The position numbers and the translations under genes were made by a program. From assembly GCA_049860595.1 (NCBI GenBank), contig CP187551.1: a stretch of DNA of 64,000 nucleotides; one strand, written 5' to 3'. The notes beneath the pieces are model-generated. The model saw only the letters and a list, made by a program, of their open reading frames with translations. It was not told the origin of the DNA and ran no database searches. Position 1 is the first letter of the stretch; each line of letters begins with the position of its first letter. The stretch comes from Methanocaldococcus sp. 16A. GTDB lineage: Archaea > AGJL01 > Methanococci > Methanococcales > Methanocaldococcaceae. This document shows, piece after piece, positions 40,786 to 53,998 of this stretch.

Positions 40786-41637
40786 TTATTCTTTATTTAG
40801 CTCTTTTATCCACTCAACATTCCCCTTTAAAACAGTCCTTGCAACAGACACAAAATCAGAGTATTTTAACATTTCTTTAGCTTTTTCTATAGAATCAATT
40901 GAGTTATTTCCAATTATTATTTTATCACTAAATTCTTCTGCCAAGATTTTTAATGAATCCAAATCTGCATAAGGTTTTCCTGGATAAAAACAATCAACAT
41001 GCAATCCATCAAAATAATCTCTCACATAGTTTAAATTATCAATTAACTCTTTTAGTGGGATGTGATTTAATCTTATCTTTAAAAAAATAGGTTTATTTAA
41101 CTCTTTCATTCTATTTAAAAATTCTTCTAAGAGCTTTTTATTTCTCATTAACTCTTGTCCAATGCCCAATGAAGTTATTTCTTTCTGCCTACAATGGCAG
41201 TTAAGTTCTATAATATCAGCATATTTAGAAATAGTTAATAATTTATCATAAGCTTCATCTATATCAACAAATCTAACATTAACTGAAACTAAAGCATTGC
41301 TTTCTCTTGATTTTTTTATTTGCTCAATTATATAGCTATTAAATTCTTCCAAATTTATAGAAAATTCCTTTCTTCCTCTTTTCTCTATGTCTTTACTTGC
41401 TTTATATGTTGCAGTATCTAAGTTGTAGCCACCAATGGTAACAATGGCAAACAAATCAATAAATTTTTTACAGAAATCCCCATCAGTAATGCCTGCCATT
41501 GGAGCTAAGACAATTTTTTTATTCAACTCATTTAATTTTTCTATTTTTTTGTTCATCTCTGCAATCACCTTTGTAATCCACATAATCTTCCAGTTGTTAT
41601 ATTTTGCTCTAAGAAATCGTCCTGCTTTAAAGTGCAT
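40786..41637 (-). CDS. tRNA-dihydrouridine synthase-like TIM barrel protein (methanogen MJ0144-type)
   Basis: [25 protein letters not shown]; true start is probably ~80 nt downstream of the ORF-track start. Confidence 0.85.
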
Positions 41638-42371
41638 ACATTTTTATTAACTATCTTTTTTCTAATTTTCTCTAATCCCTCATCAGCCAAGTTTGAGGCA
41701 TCTTCTGCAGTCCTTCCAACTCCAATTCCAGCTTTTAACTCTATATTATACTTTTTATTGATTCTGTTGAAAATATCCAAGAAATCTTCCTCACTCATTC
41801 CATTTGATGGAGCCATGAAGTTATCTCCTCCTATGAAAAACAACAAAGCGTTATGTTTTAAAAGCTCCTCCATCAATGCTAATTTAACCTTATTTACATT
41901 TATATAGGTGTCATAGGCACTCACAATATCTGTAAGAGTTCCCGTAATGTTGTTTATATCAATGTGAGCAATTTGGACATAGCCATCAACAACTAACTCA
42001 TTGGCAACATCTAAAACCTCTTTTCTATTTTCATCTTGAGCACTTCCATGCTCTTGTAGTGTTTTTGTAGCAAGTTTTTGAGCTTCATAAGGTGTTTCAG
42101 CTGAAGCAATAGCCATACTAACTGTAAATGGATATCTGTTTCTTATGCTCTCTTGGATTCTTTTGTGTGTAATTAAATCAATACCATTTGTTATAGCTAT
42201 TAAATTATCAAATCTTGTATAGAACACCAATCCCTTATGAGCTCCAAACATGAGATTTAAATCAGCATATAATCTGCTCTGCAGAGCTTGTAAATCACTC
42301 TCTCTTCTTGGATTTGGAGTAACTGTCCAAGGTCCGTAATTATCTATCTGAATTACCGTTATTTGAATCAT
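41565..42371 (-). CDS. gch3: GTP cyclohydrolase III (IIa)
   Basis: [10 protein letters not shown]...[18 protein letters not shown]. Confidence 0.95.
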
Positions 42372-43688: not shown

Positions 43689-44849
43689 TTATTTTTCCCC
43701 TCCTCCATGCTTACTTTTTCTTGGTCTTATTTTTATGATTTTTAGAAATTCTTTTTCATCATCTATAAAGACACATTCTCCTTTATTTAAATCTTTAATA
43801 TACACTTTTAATTCTTTTCCCATATATTCCTGGTTGAGTTTGTTTAATGCATTTATATCTTCTCTATTTGTTACTTTATGTGCAAAAATAATATCACATT
43901 GACTTAAAACCTCATTGTCAATTGCTGAGGGTTGTTGAGTAGCTATAACTAAATTTAATCCTGGCTGTCTTCCTTCCTTTGCCCATCTTATTAATATTTC
44001 TTTTGACAATGTTGATTTTCCAGAAGGAATGAAATTGTGTGCCTCATCAATAAACATCCAAACTTTCGGCATTTTTGATGGTAAATTTAACATTTCCTTT
44101 TTTCTTGATTTCAATCGTTGATTAAATAGATACTTTGCAATTATTGATACAATTAAATCTCTCAATCCGTATCTTCCACTTTCAATAACACTCAAATCAA
44201 TAACATTTATTGCGTTTCTTTCAAAAATTTCTTCTATTGGTATATATTCATCTGAAAAAATACCCCATTTTTTTGCCATATTTAGACGGTTAATTAATGC
44301 TTCTTTTGTGGTTTCTTTTGATTTTGTATCCCTTTCTACTTCATAAATGATATCATCAATTGTAAAAAAATCTTTTTTAATATTATCAATTGCTCTATAT
44401 AATGCGATTCCCATCATTTCATTTATATTCAAATTAAATAGATCACACCATCCTTCTGCTGAAATATCTGATGGATTTAACAAAAGTTTTTTGAATTCTA
44501 CTCCTCTATTTTTCATTTCTCTTATAACATCTTCATCAAATCTTTTGTCTATTTCTCCAGGAACTATCAATTTTACAGGATATCTTTCTGGATATAAATC
44601 CCAATCCCAAAGGTTTTCTTCTTGTTCTTCATTAGGCTCTACCATAGTCCAAAATATCCCCATCGGATCAATTATAATCTTTAAATAATCTGGATGTTTT
44701 TCTTGAATTTCTTCAACTAAAACTCCCAATGTATAGCTTTTTCCACTACCTCTTTTACCACAAATAAAAATTGCATGAGATTTTGAAGCATCTATATAAA
44801 CATCTTCTCCTAACATATCTTTTAGTTTTTCTCTTCCAATAAATAACAT
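43689..44849 (-). CDS. HerA/FtsK-family (DUF87-like) ATPase
   Basis: GKRGSGKSYT, IIIDPMG, FIDEAHNF, EGRQPG arginine finger, ATQQP. Confidence 0.9.
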   Translation of the reverse strand: MLFIGREKLKDMLGEDVYIDASKSHAIFICGKRGSGKSYTLGVLVEEIQEKHPDYLKIIIDPMGIFWTMVEPNEEQEENLWDWDLYPERYPVKLIVPGEIDKRFDEDVIREMKNRGVEFKKLLLNPSDISAEGWCDLFNLNINEMMGIALYRAIDNIKKDFFTIDDIIYEVERDTKSKETTKEALINRLNMAKKWGIFSDEYIPIEEIFERNAINVIDLSVIESGRYGLRDLIVSIIAKYLFNQRLKSRKKEMLNLPSKMPKVWMFIDEAHNFIPSGKSTLSKEILIRWAKEGRQPGLNLVIATQQPSAIDNEVLSQCDIIFAHKVTNREDINALNKLNQEYMGKELKVYIKDLNKGECVFIDDEKEFLKIIKIRPRKSKHGGGEK

Positions 44850-44852
44850 AAT

Positions 44853-45803
44853 CTACCCCTCAATAATAATTAAAGGCACAAAACACTCCTCAAATGATAT
44901 ATTTCCATGAGAACCTTTTTTATATTTTTTTGTAAAATTCCACTTTATACCATGATCAGCTGTAATTACTATAAGATAAGACTGATTTGTTTGATTTAGA
45001 ATATCTATTAAGAGGTTTATATTTTCAAAGATTTCTTTTATTCTATTAATTATTCTTTTTTTACTAACTTCCCTTAATTTATGTGCATCATCATCTAATC
45101 CAATTTTGTAAATTTGAATATATTTTTTTGATAGTTTATTTTTAGATATTATATTATAAATGTCCTCATCATAATGAAAAATGTTCTTTTCACTTATATA
45201 TCTAAATAAAATATCGGTTAATGTATTTTTTCTATTCCAATATGTTTGTCCATATCCTTTATATCCAATCTTATAAAGTTCCTTTGCAATAGGTATGCCA
45301 TTTTTTCCATAAACTATATTTTTAAGCCCATTTTCAGTCGTAGTTTTTCCATTAACAAATATAGGTTCAGCACTATAATTTATGTCTGCATTTATATAAT
45401 CCCAGTAAGATAATCCATCAATAAGATACAATATAACTGTTTTTGGGGTTTTAGTATTAACATAATTAATGATATAATCTTTAACATCTTTTTGTGTTCT
45501 AACATACTTTTCAATTAAATTATATTTTTCATTAATAATTTTATTTAATTCTGGTGTAAAAGGATTATGGTCTATTTCATAAATAGGTAGCCTATAGTCA
45601 AATTTATCAGTTATAACAAATTTTTTTTGAGGAAGTTCTTTATTTGGATTATCAACCATTAACCAAAAATCATTATATGAGATATCTTCAAAATCAAAAA
45701 ATAGAAGAGAAAGTTTATGTTTTATTTTTAAGTAACATGGAGTTTTTATCTTTTTTATTTCTTCCTTACAATTATTTCTACATTCTCCATATTCAATAGA
45801 CAT
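44853..45803 (-). CDS. PglZ-like alkaline-phosphatase-superfamily phosphoesterase
   Basis: LYLIDGLSY, LDDDAH, VITADHG and HGNISFEECFVPLIII, in PglZ order; start uncertain. Confidence 0.8.
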   Translation of the reverse strand: MSIEYGECRNNCKEEIKKIKTPCYLKIKHKLSLLFFDFEDISYNDFWLMVDNPNKELPQKKFVITDKFDYRLPIYEIDHNPFTPELNKIINEKYNLIEKYVRTQKDVKDYIINYVNTKTPKTVILYLIDGLSYWDYINADINYSAEPIFVNGKTTTENGLKNIVYGKNGIPIAKELYKIGYKGYGQTYWNRKNTLTDILFRYISEKNIFHYDEDIYNIISKNKLSKKYIQIYKIGLDDDAHKLREVSKKRIINRIKEIFENINLLIDILNQTNQSYLIVITADHGIKWNFTKKYKKGSHGNISFEECFVPLIIIEG

Positions 45804-48800
45804 TTTAATGTCCCCTCAATAGACATATTTAGATGTTTTGCAATATCTTTAATTGAAATTTCACCATATTTATTCAATAACTCAATTATTTTCATTTCTT
45901 CTTCTTTTAACTTACCAAATCTATTTTTTTCAATAATTTCTCTCTTTATCTCTTTTCTAACTTTATCTAACTCTCCCCATATTTCAAGTATATTAGATTT
46001 TACTTCTTCAATAACATTTACTATATTATCAATATTATCTTTATTTATAACATCAATATCTATGCTATTTAATTTATTTTCTATTTCATTTAGTGTTTTT
46101 AGATAGTTTTCATCATTGTCCAATTTTATTTCTACGTCTGTCTTTAATGATACTATGTAATCATATATTCTGTTTAAAACATCTTGAAGATACGTTCTTA
46201 CATTTCTTACGAGATTTTGATAAGCTATATCTCTATCTTCAATAGTAATTGGTTCTCTGTATGAATATGAAGGGATATCTAACAATTTTAATGTATTGGA
46301 CAAAAAGTTCATTTTTGTTTTGATTTCATCTTGAATCCTATTAAATTCATTTCTTAAATTACTCTCTTTTTTCTTTATGTCTTTTTCGATTAACTCTATA
46401 TCTTTTTCAACATCTTTATCCATGTATAAATAGTTTTCACCATCTCTTGCAAAGTTAGTTATTATTTCATTTATTAATTCGTTAAATCTTTCATACTCTT
46501 CATCAATGTCAATATACTCCTTATAAGCATCTATTTTTTCATATAATTCTTTTAATTTTCTAAGAATAACTAACCAAGATTTAAACTTGTTATATTTCTC
46601 ATTGATATTGACATATTCCTTTTTTAATTCATTCATTTTTTTATTAGCTATTTTTAAAACTTCAGCAAGATTTTCAAGATCTCTTGAAGATGTTATAGTT
46701 TCTCTTAATTCTAATAACTCTTTTGATAGTATATTACATTTCTTTTTTGTTATCTTTATTTGTTCCTCTAAATGTCTAACTATCCCCCCTAACGCATAAT
46801 GTGTCTTTGTAATATCCTCTTTTAAATCTTCTATTTTTCTTTTTAGTTCATTAGTTTTTTCTCCTGTTTTTAAAATTTCATTTAACAATTCTTCCTTATT
46901 TTTAGTTATCTCATTTTTAATTATTTCGTAATATCCTCTTAAAGTTCTCTCCCAACTTTCTAAAAGTTCTAAGTCTTTGTATAATAAATCAGAATTTTTC
47001 TGATTCAGAATCTCTTCTTTTTTAGATAGATTTATAGGAATCTTTGGAATATCCTTTCCATATTTTTTATAGAGATTTACAACATTCCTTGCAAGTTTTT
47101 CAACTTCATCAAATTTATTTAAAACATCAGTATTTGTTATCTCCTCAAGCTTAAATATAAATCCTTTATCGATTTCAATATATCTTCTACTTTCAAGGAT
47201 TTTTAAAATTTCTTTAACTTCATCTTCAGTATATCCTAAAGACATTCCATACTTAATTATTTCATCCATATGTATTGGTTGCGTCCATTTTTCAATAAAT
47301 TCTTTTAATATTTTTTCTTCAAGTGAATGTTTTTTTAATCTAACTATAATTTTATCTTTTTTACCCCACTCTTCTAAGTGTATTAAATCCTTCCATTTTC
47401 CACTTTTACACTCTTCATCGAACCCTGCAACACTTGGATTTTTACTACCAGTTAATTTGGAAACTAAGTCCTTTTTAGTAGTTTCGAATTTGTCACCTCT
47501 TCTCTTTGAGATCGGTAATGATTCTAATAATATTCTATATCTTTCTAAATCTCTTTGCCAGTTTGTAGAATGGATTAAAGTTCTATAATCTTTAAATTTA
47601 TATTCACAAATTCTATTAAATATTTCTTCAACCATCTTTTCTAATCGTGCCTTTAACTCATATTTTTCTGCTAATTCATCTGAGAACAAAAATCTTTTTA
47701 AATATCTTATAAGAAGTGACTTTAATGAATCTATTTCACCCTTATATTTTATGTAATCCCCTTCTTTTTCTTTAATTTTGTCAAGATAATCTAAGAGACA
47801 CAGCATAAACATTGGAGTAACTTCTTGTGGTTTAACATACTGTTGAAGTTTTTTTAACTCACCAGGCAAATTATTCTCTCCAACTCTCTTTAAAACATTA
47901 AATTTAAAGATTACATCTCCATTTTTATAGTCAATTATTAAATCATTATTTTCTATATTTTTATCTAATATAAATTTAAACTCAATATCTGGTGAAATAT
48001 CACCTACTAAATTTTTAATAAACTCCATACCTATTTCTCCAGGTTCTTTCTTTAAAGAATATACACTAACAGTTCTAAATGGATATTTCTTATTAAAAGT
48101 CCCAGTTAATAAATGATAATATCCATAGTTTATAGGATATTTTAAATCGAATCTCCACCCTATAATTTGAGATCCTTTTTTCTTTGGAAAGATTTCAGGT
48201 AATAAATGATTTATAAATGCATTAATCATTTCATCTTCCCAAGATTCATCAAATACATGTCTAAATTTTCTTATGTGTTGTTCTACATAACTACCAGAAC
48301 TTTCGTCTAATAATCCTCTTAATGTATATCCTTCAAGGGCATAAACAATTTCAGTTCCATAATAAGCATCTGAAAGTTCTTCAAACTCATTATATAAGCT
48401 ATACTTTTTTATTAAATCATCAGATACTCCTCTTGGAAATGCTCCCAACAATTTAGTAACTTTTCTTTTTTCTTCAGAATTAACTTTACTTAGAGACAAA
48501 CCTTCATTTAAAGCATCTAAATATTTTTGTTGTATATATGCAATTTTGCCATTTAAGATATCATCAACAAAATCAAATACAGAATAGGGTTCTAATTTTT
48601 CTTTATATTTTGTGCAAGCACATTTAAATGCTCCAATAACTGTCCTTGGACCTTTACCTAAATCATCTCTTGAAGAGATCTCACCAATACTTCTTAAACA
48701 GTCCTTTGTTATAATTTCATAAGGATAAAACCCTAAAAGTTCGCCATATTTGTTCCACAATTTTTCTGCAAAGTCTACATTATATATATTTACTAAATTT

Positions 48801-49594
48801 AAATAGAATCCATCTTTTCGTAATCTATCAATTAAATCTCCAGCTCTTATGCTTAAATCCTCTTCTTGATAATCTGGAATTATAAACAATATCCCCAATC
48901 CTATATTACTAATACTAAGTTCAAAAATAAAATTTCTTAAATCGTTAATAATTTCCATATTGTTTATTCCTTGCACTTCATCTACAAAAATTGCTAATCC
49001 GTCATAATGTTCTTTTATAAGATCATATATTTCCTTTAAAAAATTCATTAGGTCTTTTGGGGTTATTGATATAATTAATTTACCTTTTTCTATGAAACTA
49101 TTAATTATTCTTCTAGCTTCATCTTTTGTTAAGTGTTCTTTTTTTGCTAACTCATCAATCTCTTTTTCTATACTTAATGTTTTATATTTTCTATAAATTT
49201 CTTCAATTTTTTCAACATATTCGGGATATTTATATTTATAAACATACTTTGTCCAACCATAAACTGCATCCATGATTGTATCAAGTTTTCTATCGAACTT
49301 AAATGGGGGAATAGATAATATATTATTATTTTTGCAATATTCCCATAAACTCAGTGCCTTACTTGTCTTTCCATATCCATAAGGAGCAGATATATATCCT
49401 TTAACAGTTTTTCCTTTTTTAATTTCTTTTACAAATCTACGATCAAAGTCTTCATCATCAACTTTTATATATGTTTTTAAATGTTTTTCATAATTATCTG
49501 CAACTAAATCAGGATTGTTTATTAAATTTTCAACTGACTGAGTATCCACTACAGGACTCTTATTTATTATATATTCTAATGCACTAATATCCAT
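45755..49594 (-). CDS. Large P-loop ATPase with long coiled coil (BrxC/PglY-like)
   Basis: Walker A APYGYGKTS, Walker B AIFVDEVQ, GPRTVI; K/E-rich helical C-terminal half; terminal HTH-like ISIKDIAKHLNMS. Start placed at ATG 49594 after a GGGGGAGGG RBS. Confidence 0.75.
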   Translation of the reverse strand: MDISALEYIINKSPVVDTQSVENLINNPDLVADNYEKHLKTYIKVDDEDFDRRFVKEIKKGKTVKGYISAPYGYGKTSKALSLWEYCKNNNILSIPPFKFDRKLDTIMDAVYGWTKYVYKYKYPEYVEKIEEIYRKYKTLSIEKEIDELAKKEHLTKDEARRIINSFIEKGKLIISITPKDLMNFLKEIYDLIKEHYDGLAIFVDEVQGINNMEIINDLRNFIFELSISNIGLGILFIIPDYQEEDLSIRAGDLIDRLRKDGFYLNLVNIYNVDFAEKLWNKYGELLGFYPYEIITKDCLRSIGEISSRDDLGKGPRTVIGAFKCACTKYKEKLEPYSVFDFVDDILNGKIAYIQQKYLDALNEGLSLSKVNSEEKRKVTKLLGAFPRGVSDDLIKKYSLYNEFEELSDAYYGTEIVYALEGYTLRGLLDESSGSYVEQHIRKFRHVFDESWEDEMINAFINHLLPEIFPKKKGSQIIGWRFDLKYPINYGYYHLLTGTFNKKYPFRTVSVYSLKKEPGEIGMEFIKNLVGDISPDIEFKFILDKNIENNDLIIDYKNGDVIFKFNVLKRVGENNLPGELKKLQQYVKPQEVTPMFMLCLLDYLDKIKEKEGDYIKYKGEIDSLKSLLIRYLKRFLFSDELAEKYELKARLEKMVEEIFNRICEYKFKDYRTLIHSTNWQRDLERYRILLESLPISKRRGDKFETTKKDLVSKLTGSKNPSVAGFDEECKSGKWKDLIHLEEWGKKDKIIVRLKKHSLEEKILKEFIEKWTQPIHMDEIIKYGMSLGYTEDEVKEILKILESRRYIEIDKGFIFKLEEITNTDVLNKFDEVEKLARNVVNLYKKYGKDIPKIPINLSKKEEILNQKNSDLLYKDLELLESWERTLRGYYEIIKNEITKNKEELLNEILKTGEKTNELKRKIEDLKEDITKTHYALGGIVRHLEEQIKITKKKCNILSKELLELRETITSSRDLENLAEVLKIANKKMNELKKEYVNINEKYNKFKSWLVILRKLKELYEKIDAYKEYIDIDEEYERFNELINEIITNFARDGENYLYMDKDVEKDIELIEKDIKKKESNLRNEFNRIQDEIKTKMNFLSNTLKLLDIPSYSYREPITIEDRDIAYQNLVRNVRTYLQDVLNRIYDYIVSLKTDVEIKLDNDENYLKTLNEIENKLNSIDIDVINKDNIDNIVNVIEEVKSNILEIWGELDKVRKEIKREIIEKNRFGKLKEEEMKIIELLNKYGEISIKDIAKHLNMSIEGTLKCLLNMENVEIIVRKK

Positions 49595-50081
49595 ATACCC
49601 TCCCCCTAAAAATTTTCCATAAATCAATATTTGAATTTTGAATACTAACATTTATATTTTTTCCAATAATTGGAGATAAATTATTCAACACTTGTTTCAC
49701 ATCATATAAATCCAATTTTAGCTCCACTCCATAATCTAAAATTTTCTCTTTTGAGATATATATTACTTTTTTTGCTTTTAGAGAGACCATTCTTCTTACT
49801 TCTCTCCAATCATACAATGTTCCATTATCAATAATTACATTTATATTTCTTGCATTATAATTTTTAAATATTTCTTCATTTTCAAAATATACAAAGTTAT
49901 TATTTTTTGCAAATACCCATCCTAAAAATGTCTTTCCTACGCCTTTTTTTCCATAAAGATTAACAACATCATCATAAATAAGAAATTCTTTCAATTTTTT
50001 ATAAGCTTTTTTTTGGTTATGAGTTAGCCAATCATAAGAATAATTAGTTTTGATATAATTTATTAATGAAATATAATCCAT
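49584..50081 (-). CDS. Small P-loop NTPase-fold protein (BrxB-like position)
   Basis: VVNLYGKKGVGKTF Walker A; VIIDN Walker B lacking the catalytic Glu. Confidence 0.7.
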   Translation of the reverse strand: MDYISLINYIKTNYSYDWLTHNQKKAYKKLKEFLIYDDVVNLYGKKGVGKTFLGWVFAKNNNFVYFENEEIFKNYNARNINVIIDNGTLYDWREVRRMVSLKAKKVIYISKEKILDYGVELKLDLYDVKQVLNNLSPIIGKNINVSIQNSNIDLWKIFRGRVYGY

Positions 50082-50089
50082 AATCTCCC

Positions 50090-50830
50090 CTATAATATAT
50101 CCTCAAAAGTCCATGTTCTTTTTAATCGTACATACTTTCCAAACATTTTTATTGAAATCTCAACAAAATCATAGATGAAATCAAGATCTTTCAAGAGATT
50201 ATCTAATGCTTTATCTTCAATCAAGCAAAACTTACAGAGTTCTTCAATTTTATTCTCATCTAAAAGCATTAATGAACCGTATTCCTCTCCCCACTGTTTT
50301 TTATATAAGTAATCAATACCCCATAATAATAGATGTAGTTGGCAGTAATCTCTAAGGTTAAACACATTATTTTCATCAATTGGAGATGGATAAAGTGACT
50401 TAATAAAGTTAATTGCTCCACGAACACTATTACTACTAAATGATATACTACCAAATCCTTCATCAAATGCTCTTTCTTTAACTTTTTGTTCAATATCGTT
50501 ATGATTTATTTTTTTACCCATATATTCTTCCCATAATATGTTAATTACACATCTATATGACCATCCTATTGGAGAGGTGGAAGTATAAAGTTTATAGTGA
50601 AGATAATTATTAAACATCTCATCATCCATTTTTAAAATATTTTCAATTTCATTATTATCTTTAACATTTATTAACTTGTTCATAATTGTATAGTTATCAT
50701 CTATTATGCTTGATTTAATTTCCGGAAATATTTTCTTTAATTCAGATTTTTTTAAATTATTCCCATATTCAAGAAATTTTCTTATAATTTCTGGCTTAGC
50801 GTTATGTTGAATATGGAAACTACCTTTCAT
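50090..50830 (-). CDS. Hypothetical protein (BrxA/DUF4007-like position, possibly wHTH DNA-binding)
   Basis: 246 aa ORF with ATGA overlap to the TGT gene; family inferred from position and size only. Confidence 0.55.
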   Translation of the reverse strand: MKGSFHIQHNAKPEIIRKFLEYGNNLKKSELKKIFPEIKSSIIDDNYTIMNKLINVKDNNEIENILKMDDEMFNNYLHYKLYTSTSPIGWSYRCVINILWEEYMGKKINHNDIEQKVKERAFDEGFGSISFSSNSVRGAINFIKSLYPSPIDENNVFNLRDYCQLHLLLWGIDYLYKKQWGEEYGSLMLLDENKIEELCKFCLIEDKALDNLLKDLDFIYDFVEISIKMFGKYVRLKRTWTFEDIL

Positions 50831-51753
50831 TCTTTCACCATTTCATATAGGACAATTATATTATGTAATGATCTATATATTTTAAATTTTCTTAAATTAT
50901 TTAAATTTTTACAAAAGTAACACTCATGACCATTTCTAAGATTTTCAATTAAATAATCATATCCAATATAATTTTTTTGTGAAGTTCTTGGAGATTTGCC
51001 AGTTATATTAATAGTTCGTGAATTGGGAAAATATATATCTCCGAATCCACTTGCCTTATCCCAACTACTACTATCAAAACTATCTACATAATCTTTAATT
51101 TTATTTACAGAACTACCTCCACCAATCCCAAAAGCATGTAATTCAAATCCATAATCTTTTGCTAACATAGATAGATACTTTAAATTTTCCAAACTTTCTT
51201 TAGTTAATCTGTTAATTTGATTATTTTTTCCACAAGTACCAAAACTTCCAAAACCTAATCGTCTAACATTTAAATCTGCATAATTTTTAACACAATAATA
51301 TATCATCTCTTTATTAATTCCCTGAACTACAGGAACAAATTTTTTTTCTAATTTTCCGTTAAACTCTTCAGCAAAACTCTTTGCAAAATAAACTGTCTCA
51401 TAAACTTTTCCCCATGCAGTCTCTACATTATCAGATGAAACTGGTGGAGAATCTGGTAGAACATACCAATCTCCCCATTTATTATTTTCATAAAATTTTC
51501 TCAAAAATGAAAATAGTTGATGTATTTCAAACTTCCCTTGTTGAACATAGTATCCTCCACTATCAAACATAACAGTTGTTTTATATTTTTTCTTTAAATT
51601 TTTAATTTCCTGTATAGTTCCTTCTGATGAAACTATCGGAGTAAAGATTACATTTTCAAATGCCCATTTTTTTGGCTCATGTTTCTTTAAAAGTTCAACC
51701 ATTCTCCTAATCTGACCTGGGGAAATCGTCAATGATGCATAAAATTCCACCAT
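50827..51753 (-). CDS. tRNA-guanine-transglycosylase-fold protein (TGT/DpdA-like)
   Basis: MFDSGGY, LPDSPP, VPVVQG, LGFGS, LHAFGIG, DSFDSSSW, and Zn-site-like HECYFC...HN. Confidence 0.82.
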   Translation of the reverse strand: MVEFYASLTISPGQIRRMVELLKKHEPKKWAFENVIFTPIVSSEGTIQEIKNLKKKYKTTVMFDSGGYYVQQGKFEIHQLFSFLRKFYENNKWGDWYVLPDSPPVSSDNVETAWGKVYETVYFAKSFAEEFNGKLEKKFVPVVQGINKEMIYYCVKNYADLNVRRLGFGSFGTCGKNNQINRLTKESLENLKYLSMLAKDYGFELHAFGIGGGSSVNKIKDYVDSFDSSSWDKASGFGDIYFPNSRTINITGKSPRTSQKNYIGYDYLIENLRNGHECYFCKNLNNLRKFKIYRSLHNIIVLYEMVKE

Positions 51754-51755
51754 TT

Positions 51756-52337
51756 TTACCCCTCTAAATATTTAGCCATTAATACTAAATCCTTATTACC
51801 TCTTGTATGGTTTTTTAAAATACCTTCAATTATAAAACCATTTTTTATAAAAAATCTAAGCCCTCCTTCATTATCTTTAGGAACCTCGGCATATATCTTT
51901 TTCTTTTTTAATTTTTTAGCTTTTTTTTCCAAAAAGTCAATAAAATATATACCAAGAGATTTATTTTTAAATTTTTTATCTATTGCAATATAATTAATTT
52001 TTAGATAATTTGGTTTTTCTCCATAAACTACAACACCAATCAAATCATTTTTATGGAAAATTCCTGCTACATTTATAGTTTTAGAGGTCGTAATCCATTG
52101 CTTTATTGATGATTTATAAACAAAGCCCCAAATATCTGCATAATTTAACAATATCTCTTGAACCCTGTCAACATAATTAACATCATCAATATCTTTAACT
52201 ATAATTTTATTTTTAATTTTTTCTATTTGTTTCGATGACTTTTTGTTTTTATTTTTGTTATTACTTTCAATTAATTCAAATTTTTTATATAAATCATAAA
52301 TTTCAAAGATTATTTTTTGTTGCGTATTCAAGCCCAT
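51756..52337 (-). CDS. GNAT-family acyltransferase
   Basis: INYIAIDKKFKNKSLG motif A; DNEGGLRFFIKNGFIIEG motif B. Confidence 0.88.
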   Translation of the reverse strand: MGLNTQQKIIFEIYDLYKKFELIESNNKNKNKKSSKQIEKIKNKIIVKDIDDVNYVDRVQEILLNYADIWGFVYKSSIKQWITTSKTINVAGIFHKNDLIGVVVYGEKPNYLKINYIAIDKKFKNKSLGIYFIDFLEKKAKKLKKKKIYAEVPKDNEGGLRFFIKNGFIIEGILKNHTRGNKDLVLMAKYLEG

Positions 52338-52983
52338 ATTTTCTCGCCCCTATTGCATTTATAAATTGTGGATTTTTAGGAATATAAACATCTTTTTCAG
52401 TAATTTCCTTAAAATATTTCACGAATGCCTCATTTTCTGCAACTCCTCCAATCAAGGCAATAGTATCGCATTCAAATGGGTTCATGTTAGCTATTTTCTT
52501 TGCTATAGTGTAATTTACAGATGATATAATATCTCTGATAGTATAGCCATTCACAAGGTAGTTAATTATTTCAGAAATTGAAAAAACAGCACAAGTGTTA
52601 TTTAATTTTAATGGATTTTTTGAGTAATATTTTCCAAAGTTCTCTATAGGAACATCTAAATACATGGCTATAGTTTGCAAAAATAGTCCAGTACCAGCTC
52701 CACATTTATCATTCATTACAAACTCTAATGTTTTTGTATTTATTATCTTTGTATCCTGTCCTCCAACATCAATTATAACATCAACTTCTTTATCAACACC
52801 GTATATAGCAGCAGTAATTTCAGTTATATGATTTCTAAATCTCTTTCTGAAATATCCTGTTGCGAAGACATCTCTATCATTATATTTCTCCAATATCTCG
52901 TTCAATTTAATTATGGAATATTTTTTGAAACCTTGCTCATCTGCAATTTTTATATTTGTTGAACCAACATCAATGCCTATCAT
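52303..52983 (-). CDS. Acyl-CoA dehydratase activator (HgdC/BadF-G type ASKHA ATPase, [4Fe-4S])
   Basis: GIDVGSTNIK, ATGY, DVGGQDTK, MNDKCGAGTG, CAVF, GGVAEN, NAIGA. Confidence 0.92.
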   Translation of the reverse strand: MIGIDVGSTNIKIADEQGFKKYSIIKLNEILEKYNDRDVFATGYFRKRFRNHITEITAAIYGVDKEVDVIIDVGGQDTKIINTKTLEFVMNDKCGAGTGLFLQTIAMYLDVPIENFGKYYSKNPLKLNNTCAVFSISEIINYLVNGYTIRDIISSVNYTIAKKIANMNPFECDTIALIGGVAENEAFVKYFKEITEKDVYIPKNPQFINAIGARKYGLEYATKNNL

Positions 52984-52985
52984 AA

Positions 52986-53918
52986 CTACCCCAACAACTC
53001 TATAAATGCTTCAATTCTCAGCTTTGTTTGTTCTGGTGTTTTTTGGGGGATGTCCCCCTCTATTGTTAGTATGGGATAATCAATAAATTCCCTAAGAATC
53101 TCATCTTCTAATTTATGATGACAATTCATTTGGGTATAATGAATTACTCCATCAACTTTTCTCTTTTTTAATTCTTTTTTTAGAATTTTTATTCTTTTAG
53201 TTATGTGATTTGCAAAACTGTATGTTGAATAACTATTTACTATACTCTTTATTGAATCTCCTCCCATTCTTACAAATTCATAAGCAAGTTCATTATAAAC
53301 ACAATGTACATTTATTTCATTTAAGTATTCATAAAAATCGCTAAAAATTGGTGGAATTCCTATTATAGCAATCCTATGTCTATATTCAATGTTTTCATCT
53401 TTGTTTAATATGTTATAGATTTCTTTTTTGTATGCATTTAAATCTCCTTTTAAATCACTTGCAGAAATTGTAATATAAAAGGCATCTTTTCCATTTATTT
53501 TGTCTTTATAGCATAATTCATCTACTTTTTTTGCAAGTTTTTTTATTTGATAAACTTCTCTTAAAGTAGTTTTATCAATATTTCCACCCAAAAAATTAAT
53601 AAGTTTTTTTATTTCATTTTCAAAATGTTTTTTATCTCCAAATTGATAAAAGAAATAATGTGTTGGAATTTTTTTCTTTAGTTCTATCTTTTCAGCATCA
53701 ACAAGAGAATTTTGACAATCACCTCCCGCAACAACAATTAATGTATCAATTTTAATTTCATCTTTTAAAATCAATTCTCTCCAAGTTGCAGTCCATGCAC
53801 ATAGTTTATTTTTAGGATAAATTTTCGATTGTGGAACTAAATTATTTAGATCTATAGGAGTATGACCTGCAGAATAAATAATTTCTGGTGGTACTATAGC
53901 AGTAATTCCAACTTTCAT
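52986..53918 (-). CDS. 2-hydroxyacyl-CoA dehydratase family protein (HGD-D)
   Basis: PPEIIYSAG, Cys in KLCAW / GGDCQN / QMNCHH, VDGVIHY, PILTIEGD...QTKLRIEAFIELL. Confidence 0.88.
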   Translation of the reverse strand: MKVGITAIVPPEIIYSAGHTPIDLNNLVPQSKIYPKNKLCAWTATWRELILKDEIKIDTLIVVAGGDCQNSLVDAEKIELKKKIPTHYFFYQFGDKKHFENEIKKLINFLGGNIDKTTLREVYQIKKLAKKVDELCYKDKINGKDAFYITISASDLKGDLNAYKKEIYNILNKDENIEYRHRIAIIGIPPIFSDFYEYLNEINVHCVYNELAYEFVRMGGDSIKSIVNSYSTYSFANHITKRIKILKKELKKRKVDGVIHYTQMNCHHKLEDEILREFIDYPILTIEGDIPQKTPEQTKLRIEAFIELLG

Positions 53919-53998
53919 AAATGCACACCTACTAAAAAATATAATATAAGATAATAATGATAAAAAAATTGACTAATTAAAATAAAAATTTTTTTAAG

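Follow-up and report, generated by a model that had tools for sequence, protein, structure and literature searches.

A gene pair of the HGD-D/activase type in a Methanocaldococcus BREX-related island as a probable non-orthologous replacement for QueF

The subject of this analysis is a nine-gene island on the minus strand of a 64,000-nt stretch of DNA from the heat-loving methanogen Methanocaldococcus sp. 16A (contig CP187551.1; the whole stretch is referred to below as the window), at the head of which lie the genes for a short, single-subunit HGD-D family protein and an ATP-dependent activase, followed by genes for a GNAT acyltransferase and for a predicted base-exchange enzyme of the tRNA-guanine transglycosylase (TGT) superfamily. 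The island is a mobile defence island of the ‘BREX-Related Capture’ (BRC) type, a kind of island already described in print (PMC12839542; Nucleic Acids Res 2026;54(3):gkag035, January 2026). From comparison of sequences we consider it probable that the HGD-D, activase and GNAT genes form the base-supply and tailoring module of the island and that the HGD-D/activase pair replaces QueF, non-orthologously, in the conversion of preQ0 to preQ1; the pair is read as a preQ0 reductase because its phyletic distribution is complementary to that of QueF and because of its gene neighbourhoods. A first-pass annotation of the sequence had spoken of possible new chemistry here; it had not recognized that the system as a whole is the published BREX-related one. 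The main text of the BRC paper contains none of the terms HGD, hydroxyglutaryl, BcrAD, dehydratase, QueF, nitrile, preQ1 or queuosine, and our literature search found no paper linking the HGD-D subfamily to preQ0 reduction, so that, as far as that search and that main text extend, three things were not found in print: the pair in BRC islands, the QueF genes of the haloarchaeal islands and the HGD-D subfamily as a QueF analogue.

The HGD-D gene (52986..53918, minus strand; 310 aa; PF06050) is the only gene of its family in the island and is separated by 2 nt (stop codon, TT, ATG) from the activase gene (52303..52983, minus strand; 226 aa; BcrAD/BadFG/HgdC type, TIGR00241). The activase open reading frame (ORF) overlaps by 35 nt that of the GNAT gene (51756..52337, minus strand; 193 aa with an N-terminal extension of about 40 aa; PF00583; BRC-system GNAT family), the stop codon of which (TAA) is followed by AA and then by the ATG of the TGT-like gene (50827..51753, minus strand; 308 aa; assigned by profile, Foldseek and motifs), which itself overlaps the next gene by 4 nt. 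These junctions were read directly from the sequence and agree with the first-pass annotation, which had described a GNAT gene overlapped by the activator and ending 2 bp before the TGT start. It had also placed a compact single HGD-D protein with three cysteines, together with an intact activator, at the head of the operon, as is borne out by the coordinates, the profile matches and the conservation of the cysteines (24/24, see below), and had noted the absence of CoA-transferase partners, none of which was found among the 13 window ORFs scanned with profiles.

The coupling of the pair and the GNAT gene to the TGT-like gene, which the annotation had likewise claimed, extends to the relatives of the strain. 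Among 41 genomes of the same order (the genome of the window included) a full-length short HGD-D gene is present in five, and the TGT-like gene is present in exactly the same five. All nine island genes are syntenic in all four island-bearing relatives; in two of these (G009 and G023) the island does not adjoin cbf5, the gene that it follows in the window. The HerA protein is 84–97% identical across the four related islands. Two more genomes have HGD-D fragments only, one at a contig end and one a broken remnant beside cbf5 (G013). Pairs standing beside cbf5 without the rest of the island, which had been named in advance as a finding that would tell against the coupling, were looked for in the 41 genomes and were not seen. 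The G013 remnant, from an island-free genome of the same genus (L028 9953-10124), keeps about 170 nt from the 5′ end of the HGD-D gene and contains both a frameshift and a TGA codon; on its sequence it is a scar of island loss at this site.

A search with an alignment of the TGT-like family returned 80 genome loci, mostly from Chloroflexota, Latescibacterota and Poribacteria with the addition of three methanogens, and tblastn placed the HGD-D/activase pair in three of them (L029, L030 and L031), all from methanogens. The pair heads the operon in the Methanococcales islands; in Methanosarcina sp. UBA7 (L031) it follows the HerA gene and the GNAT gene stands before the TGT-like gene. The same two arrangements are seen on two contigs from metagenomes (L132 and L152). 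A quick maximum-likelihood tree places the Methanosarcina-type pair within archaeal sequences linked to queA, away from the Methanococcales clade, and this tree, which has a long outgroup branch, suggests that BRC islands recruited the pair twice. The wider survey covered 401 archaeal genomes, sampled from the phylum to which the Methanosarcina genome belongs, and about 70 host genomes. The TGT-like gene was found in five of the 401, three of which have complete, haloarchaeal islands that lack the pair. Each of these three islands has a QueF-family gene in it or at it, and these are the sole QueF matches in the genomes concerned. In two of the islands the QueF gene lies directly upstream of the TGT-like gene and overlaps it (one of the two having a second QueF copy about 1 kb further upstream) and in the third it stands just after the GNAT gene (L115 14093-14521 and 15229-15636, L116 5607-6035, L114 15233-15595). 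Three of the four proteins score above the cut-off of TIGR03139 (‘preQ(1) synthase’) and all four carry the cysteine motif and ExKSLKxY, which we take to be the NADPH motif that separates QueF from the QueF-like amidinotransferases; a profile made from the four had no match among the ORFs of the 80 genome loci. QueF was not found in any of the 13 pair-bearing genomes, no QueF is present in the whole genome from which the window comes, and the pair itself does not match the QueF family (PF14489/TIGR03139). QueC is present in the island host genome and in every host of the pair that was tested. As QueF is the step that is consistently missing and as it fills the equivalent slot in the haloarchaeal islands, the pair would act at the QueF step.

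The same HGD-D subfamily also occurs outside BRC islands. A short HGD-D gene (47–51% identity) was detected in eight of the 401 archaeal genomes, one of which is the Methanosarcina BRC host, and the other seven (G438, G132, G358, G099, G121 (L126-L130), G323 and G110) are exactly the seven QueA-positive genomes of the 401. QueH was found in six of the seven (not in G132), QueC in all five that were tested and QueF in none. The pair adjoins queA and a bacterial-type tgt (TIGR00430, 468 bits with a cut-off of 306.75) in five of the seven and the gene for the GTP cyclohydrolase MptA in one. Considered for themselves, the seven archaeal genomes hold a bacterial-type queuosine gene set without QueF; to our knowledge queuosine has been regarded as absent from archaea. 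A gene for a 136-aa protein with a PNPOx-like FMN-binding fold lies just downstream of the pair in two of the archaeal loci (L126 8245-8655 and L128 11932-12342) and in seven metagenome loci, and its product could be an electron carrier for these queA-linked pairs or its position could be mere lineage synteny.

A metagenome scan gave 80 further loci, in which queA, bacterial-type tgt, queC, queD, queE and mptA were counted as queuosine-pathway genes. Among the 41 loci at 44% identity or above, 36 have the activase gene adjacent, 13 have a queuosine-pathway gene no more than 3 kb away and two have a BRC context; for loci of this set with an upstream flank of 1 kb or more, the queuosine-linked proportion is 11 of 26. 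Distant HGD-D homologues stand in the operons queD–queE–HGD-D, queE–queC–HGD-D and HGD-D–activase–queC–queD–queE, and queC adjoins the HGD-D gene in L187 and L210. The linkage with queC, queD, queE or tgt that the first-pass annotation had recommended looking for is therefore found, with the pair both beside queA-tgt and inside queC/D/E operons. In L210 (880-5972, metagenome) the HGD-D, activase, queC, queD and queE genes are followed by two genes of the UDG superfamily, and the presence of such glycosylase-fold genes behind those of a preQ pathway hints at a further deazaguanine system directed at DNA.

Bacterial BRC hosts provide a second view of which base is used. QueC was not found in 29 of 50 such hosts, nor in G042 and G045, giving 31 QueC-negative hosts. 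This absence was considered as evidence against a deazaguanine role and then dropped, because QueA is present in 28 of the 31 and QueF above the cut-off in only three (28 of the 31 being without it), which points to salvage of preQ1: a genome with QueA that lacks QueC and QueF needs external preQ1, which makes preQ1 its only likely deazaguanine base. On their gene content the QueA-positive hosts without QueC or QueF (mostly Chloroflexota) probably salvage preQ1 while running the TGT/GNAT module. Among the QueC-positive hosts that were tested QueF was found in eight of 12. The prediction that QueC-positive, QueF-negative hosts carry the pair held in two of four, both of them anaerobic Firmicutes (G058, E = 1e-105; G062, 4e-109) with the activase gene adjacent, and the pair was found in none of five QueF-positive hosts. 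These distributions are best explained if the common base of BRC systems is preQ1, which would be obtained by way of host QueF, salvage, island QueF or the island pair. From bacteria to both archaeal groups there is no variation in the motifs that form the pocket of the TGT-like protein, which also argues for one common base.

By Pfam alone the TGT-like protein is only weakly recognizable (PF01702, E = 0.0022, 17.6 bits, under the cut-off of 26.3). When a profile of 20 sequences of its family was compared with solved structures, DpdA (7ui4, E = 0.0065) and the archaeal enzyme arcTGT (1iq8, E = 0.0095) were matched, and all 50 of the Foldseek matches listed for its AlphaFold model (mean predicted local distance difference test score, pLDDT, 87.6) belong to the TGT superfamily (TGT, arcTGT and DpdA). 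The family comprises at least 248 proteins and has invariant FDSGG, LPD, GFGSF and SFDS motifs and a Zn-type site (H276-x-C278-x-x-C281...H297), the motifs presumably corresponding to the catalytic residues of TGT. The family motifs, the structure-profile matches and the matches of the model together secure the TGT assignment. With 12–16% identity to DpdA and to the tRNA TGTs the protein is no nearer to DpdA. The GNAT protein matches PF00583 (33 bits, cut-off 20.7), and alignment of the Methanococcales GNAT with nine other BRC GNATs by hhalign (probability 95.4%, E = 1.8e-8, 133 columns) indicates that it is a divergent member of the BRC GNAT family. Across loci the GNAT gene is found before the TGT-like gene, fused to it or after the HerA gene, the GNAT–TGT fusions being present in relatives.

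The HGD-D protein matches PF06050 with E = 7.1e-32 (111.7 bits, cut-off 28.4). All 24 aligned members of the subfamily share cysteines C40, C68 and C266, and the two remaining cysteines (C136 and C206) are not conserved. The three cysteines and nine further residues are invariant across the BRC, queA-linked and que-operon contexts, so that one chemistry is likely in all of them. The double-cubane cluster profile NF040772 is matched only in part and far below its cut-off (44.6 bits, cut-off 350), and with only three invariant cysteines a double cubane is unlikely. The predicted structure (pLDDT 94.3) has its best fold matches in HadBC, BzdNO/MbdON and DCCP (Foldseek, TMq 0.79–0.81, 16–21% identity). 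Modelled in two copies the protein scores 0.84 as compared with 0.00 for the best control, at least 97% of contacts are common to the runs and the partners have pLDDT of at least 93; of proteins with solved structures, 20 of 30 one-chain pairs and one of 23 single chains attained the 0.84 mark. It should be noted that complexes like this have already been solved, so that the pass may reflect likeness and is no proof of binding. The interface of the model passes the loops that bear the cysteines. The protein would be a homodimer in which each subunit holds a single [4Fe-4S] cluster by the three cysteines. The features of a 2-hydroxyacyl-CoA dehydratase, namely alpha and beta subunits and a CoA-transferase partner, are lacking in the island HGD-D. 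The activase matches TIGR00241 (acyl-CoA dehydratase activase; 132.6 bits, cut-off 125.4) and PF01869 (E = 5.9e-24), retains both cluster cysteines (C94 in NDKCGAGTG and C131 in NNTCAVFSISE) and conserves the ASKHA-type ATP motifs GIDVGS and DVGGQD. A second, conserved HGD-D paralogue of 380 aa elsewhere in the same genome is a distinct gene.

The pathway that we propose begins with the preQ0 that the host would make for archaeosine, its genome having QueC and lacking QueF. The homodimeric [4Fe-4S] HGD-D protein would take low-potential electrons from the activase, which would inject them at the cost of ATP hydrolysis, and would bind the nitrile of preQ0 at an open iron site and reduce it to the aminomethyl group of preQ1. 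The TGT-fold enzyme, whose fold and motifs are evident, would then exchange guanine for the 7-deazaguanine, DNA being the presumed target and preQ1 or its derivative the presumed base. Before or after insertion the GNAT would acylate the amine of the side-chain, probably with an acetyl group, to give N-acetyl-preQ1 as a self-mark. Finally the BrxC-like ATPase, the small NTPase, the PglZ-like protein and HerA would restrict unmarked DNA, as in the BRC proposal set out in the published main text.

A broader proposal, to which we would give slightly less than an even chance, is that the pair is the first ATP-driven iron–sulfur nitrile reductase, that it provides anaerobic archaea (relatives named as Methanoperedens, ANME-2, Methanosarcinales and Thermoplasmata) and some bacteria with preQ1 and queuosine, and that BRC islands have captured it at least twice for an N-acetyl-preQ1 self-mark in DNA. 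If this is true, the preQ0-reductase gap would be filled in archaea that lack queF but possess bacterial-type tgt, queA, queH and queC, and nitrile reduction would join the chemistry of the ATP-dependent superfamily of HGD-D proteins, benzoyl-CoA reductase and DCCP, members of which reduce aromatic rings and acetylene. The predicted BRC self-mark would also no longer be preQ0 but a derivative of preQ1, in all probability an acetylated one, and N-acetyl-preQ1 would be a DNA base so far undescribed.

A number of observations weigh against the replacement of QueF by the pair. We know of no member of the HGD-D family that reduces a nitrile, the reduction of a nitrile to an amine takes four electrons, and CoA thioesters or small molecules are the substrates of the characterized relatives. 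The seven QueA-positive archaea are related to one another and so do not represent seven independent events, and MptA, to which the pair is adjacent in one of them, has a role in pterin synthesis too, which makes this adjacency ambiguous. In the metagenomes, 15 of the 26 adequately flanked loci have no queuosine-pathway gene within 3 kb, and below 44% identity only five of 39 loci are queuosine-linked, two of these five being identical sequences. On Firmicutes-type contigs (L214 8060-10715, L215 35-1860, L178 and L184) genes for an Asp/Glu racemase and a cell-wall amidase always precede the pair, a context that the queuosine hypothesis does not explain; in the two Firmicutes hosts (G058 and G062) these two genes, and no que genes, likewise stand beside it. 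With regard to the bacterial hosts, three of the QueC-negative ones lack QueA as well, and two QueC-positive Chloroflexota (G056 and G083) have neither QueF nor the pair, to which it must be added that most host genomes are metagenome-assembled and may be incomplete. One of the four haloarchaeal QueF proteins (P0243) falls short of TIGR03139 (80, cut-off 86.9). As to the later steps, the TGT-like enzyme could act on RNA instead, and the N-acyl-deazaguanine product of the GNAT is an inference in which acceptor and acyl donor are both assumed.

Three other explanations of the pair were weighed. The one that survives best, which we nevertheless regard as unlikely, keeps it in 7-deazaguanine metabolism but at another step: preQ0 might be reduced within the nucleic acid, reduction might stop at the level of an imine or aldehyde, another substituent might be the target, or the pair might be an epoxyqueuosine reductase. 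Its linkage to queA-tgt, to queC/D/E and to BRC TGT-like genes would fit any deazaguanine-directed reductase, and the epoxide step in particular gains something from the genome in which QueH was not found (G132) and from the 13 pair genomes, none of which has a QueG above the cut-off (sub-threshold ferredoxin-like matches only). Against this, the QueH of the other six QueA-positive archaea covers the epoxide step, the BRC hosts of the pair have no QueA and so make no epoxide, and it is QueF that is missing throughout and whose gene occupies the equivalent slot in the haloarchaeal islands. The role of epoxyqueuosine reductase was rejected on the first two of these points, and replacement of QueC was rejected too, since QueC is present in all tested hosts of the pair and its gene adjoins that of HGD-D in L187 and L210.

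It is distinctly improbable, in our estimate, that the pair lies outside base chemistry altogether, as a redox- or ATP-dependent sensor or effector of defence or as passenger genes. Many defence islands do gather unrelated cargo, and no PADLOC model matches the pair; but it co-occurs with the island in five of five Methanococcales genomes with 2-nt coupling, the BRC-linked pairs fall in two groups of the quick tree and in two operon positions, which suggests repeated recruitment, and the same subfamily is queuosine-linked in genomes that have no defence island. The first-pass annotation had left two uses of the pair side by side, reduction of preQ0 to an amine before acylation, which is favoured by the swap with QueF and by the tracking of QueA-positive, QueF-negative genomes, and production of an unusual acyl-CoA. 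The latter, with the pair as a 2-hydroxyacyl-CoA-type dehydratase whose product the GNAT transfers to base or protein, has very little chance of being correct: (R)-2-hydroxyisocaproyl-CoA dehydratase is among the best structural matches and the GNAT gene overlaps the activase gene in the window, but beside queA-tgt and within queC/D/E operons the pair has no GNAT with it, 77 of the 80 genome loci and the haloarchaeal islands have the GNAT and not the pair, pair and GNAT are at opposite ends of the Methanosarcina operon, and there is one HGD-D subunit at 16–21% identity to the dehydratases with no CoA-transferase or ligase nearby.

For the island as a whole, the main text of the BRC paper gives as parts PglZ, DUF6079, a STAND NTPase, DUF4007, HerA, GNAT and TGT, reports the system from 45 taxa and proposes dPreQ0 as the likely mark. 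In the window HerA/FtsK, GNAT and TGT genes are together in one operon, as in BRC, and the sizes, the gene order and the P-loop of the island proteins agree with the published description as far as that main text goes. Profile scores for the individual parts are weak (PglZ, PF08665, E = 0.018 and Phosphodiest, E = 0.0031, both below cut-off; nSTAND3, E = 0.0054), and hmmscan at E values up to 5 found neither DUF6079 on the large ATPase nor DUF4007 on the 246-aa protein. With PADLOC only the HerA protein is matched (HerA, 6e-28; mad8, 4.8e-25), the other eight of the nine island proteins having no match, and no Dpd system is recognized. The order TGT-like, 246-aa protein, NTPase, large ATPase, PglZ-like protein, HerA recurs in the 80 genome loci, its clusters being present in 48–78 of them: homologues of the 246-aa protein come directly after the TGT-like gene in nearly all loci, the small-NTPase cluster is found in 56 and the PglZ-like cluster in 50, and homologues of the large ATPase in most.

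Compared with BRC as described in that main text, the island shares the TGT, GNAT and HerA parts and has candidates for the other four of the seven (a DNA-binding protein of about 250 aa, small NTPase, BrxC-like ATPase and PglZ-like protein); it also shares the existence of GNAT–TGT fusions in some members and a sparse distribution across archaea and bacteria; it differs in the added HGD-D/activase pair, and the haloarchaeal QueF genes point to preQ1 where the paper proposes dPreQ0. The Dpd systems (DpdA/DpdB/DpdC; dPreQ0 and dADG in bacterial DNA) likewise have a TGT-fold enzyme predicted to place a 7-deazaguanine in DNA as a restriction-like self-mark, whereas the window island has no DpdB or DpdC match and its restriction part is BREX/HerA-like. 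The nearest precedents for derivatization of the aminomethyl nitrogen of preQ1 in DNA are the phage formyltransferase DpdN and methyltransferase DpdM, which give fdPreQ1 and mdPreQ1 from preQ1 supplied by QueF (PMC10516641; NAR 2023;51:9214); N-acyl-preQ1 is not listed among the eight known DNA deazaguanine derivatives in the abstract of that paper. Here, by contrast, a GNAT takes their place, an N-acetyl or N-acyl product is expected, and the setting is cellular defence and not phage counter-defence. Relatives of the HGD-D protein were looked for in viruses and none was found in IMG/VR contigs or, by tblastn, in GenBank phages.

With QueF the pair would have in common the step from preQ0 to preQ1 and has in common its place in gene clusters, whether next to queC/D/E, ahead of a transglycosylase gene or within BRC islands. 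There is no kinship of sequence or fold, since the pair combines the HGD-D fold, three cysteines for an Fe-S cluster and an ATP-hydrolysing activase, and it could be an analogue only. QueF is a T-fold enzyme that works through a cysteine thioimide and NADPH. HadBC/HadI, HgdAB/HgdC, BzdNOPQ, MbdONPQ and DCCP/DCCP-R resemble the pair in the fold of the catalytic subunit, in an activase with a cysteine pair for a bridging cluster and in ATP-driven electron injection. Unlike these systems, with their alpha/beta pairs of about 375–430 aa, the island has one subunit of 310 aa without any CoA-ester context, and its proposed substrate is a deazapurine nitrile.

The remaining genes of the island lie downstream of the TGT-like gene, also on the minus strand. 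The 246-aa protein (50090..50830) has no Pfam match and corresponds by synteny to the component named DUF4007/BrxA-like in PMC12839542. It is followed by a P-loop NTPase of 165 aa (49584..50081; weak nSTAND3/AAA matches, E = 0.005–0.008), the probable equivalent of the small STAND/BrxB-like NTPase of BRC, and by the large ATPase (45755..49651; 1298 aa), the probable equivalent of the BrxC-like/DUF6079 component, which has a P-loop (GYGKTS) in its N-terminal part and ends in a winged helix at the C-terminus (HTH_24, E = 3.8e-4) and probably starts near 49594. A putative alkaline-phosphatase-fold protein of 316 aa (44853..45803; weak Phosphodiest/PglZ matches) is the PglZ-like candidate effector, and the final gene encodes a HerA/FtsK-type translocase ATPase of 386 aa (43689..44849; PF01935, E = 4.7e-14). 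From 55009 to 43689 the strand thus reads cbf5 (TIGR00425, E = 6e-172), a spacer and nine tightly packed genes; the spacer (53919..53998, minus strand) consists of 80 AT-rich nt with AGGTG a few bases 5′ of the ATG and is presumed to hold the promoter and ribosome-binding region. Just past the island, genes for GTP cyclohydrolase III and a Dus-like protein (41565-42371 and 40786-41637) are kept in relatives with or without adjacency to cbf5 and are seemingly unrelated to it.

Three variations were noted in other BRC loci. The Methanothermococcus island (L030 11684-16028, equal to L026 8676-13083) has a 4.4-kb insert with four ORFs between the genes for the 246-aa protein and the NTPase, one of them encoding a CRISPR-associated RAMP-superfamily protein (PF03787, E = 2.9e-19). 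In 53 of the 80 genome loci a sigma-70-like gene (cluster 3) lies directly 5′ of the TGT-like gene and encodes a protein of 700–830 aa with regions 2 and 4 (for example L032 7624-9999, L034 2786-5272 and L057 7318-9561), one example adding RNA polymerase alpha-CTD-like repeats and a HARE-HTH domain. About 12 bacterial loci (L038, L053, L061, L081, L085, L089, L092 and others) have the GNAT, TGT-like, 246-aa and large ATPase genes without PglZ or HerA, and a divergent operon in these loci encodes a DEAD-box helicase-like protein of 1465–1778 aa and three proteins without Pfam matches (clusters 6, 7, 8, 13 and 15), which looks like a second effector variant of BRC.

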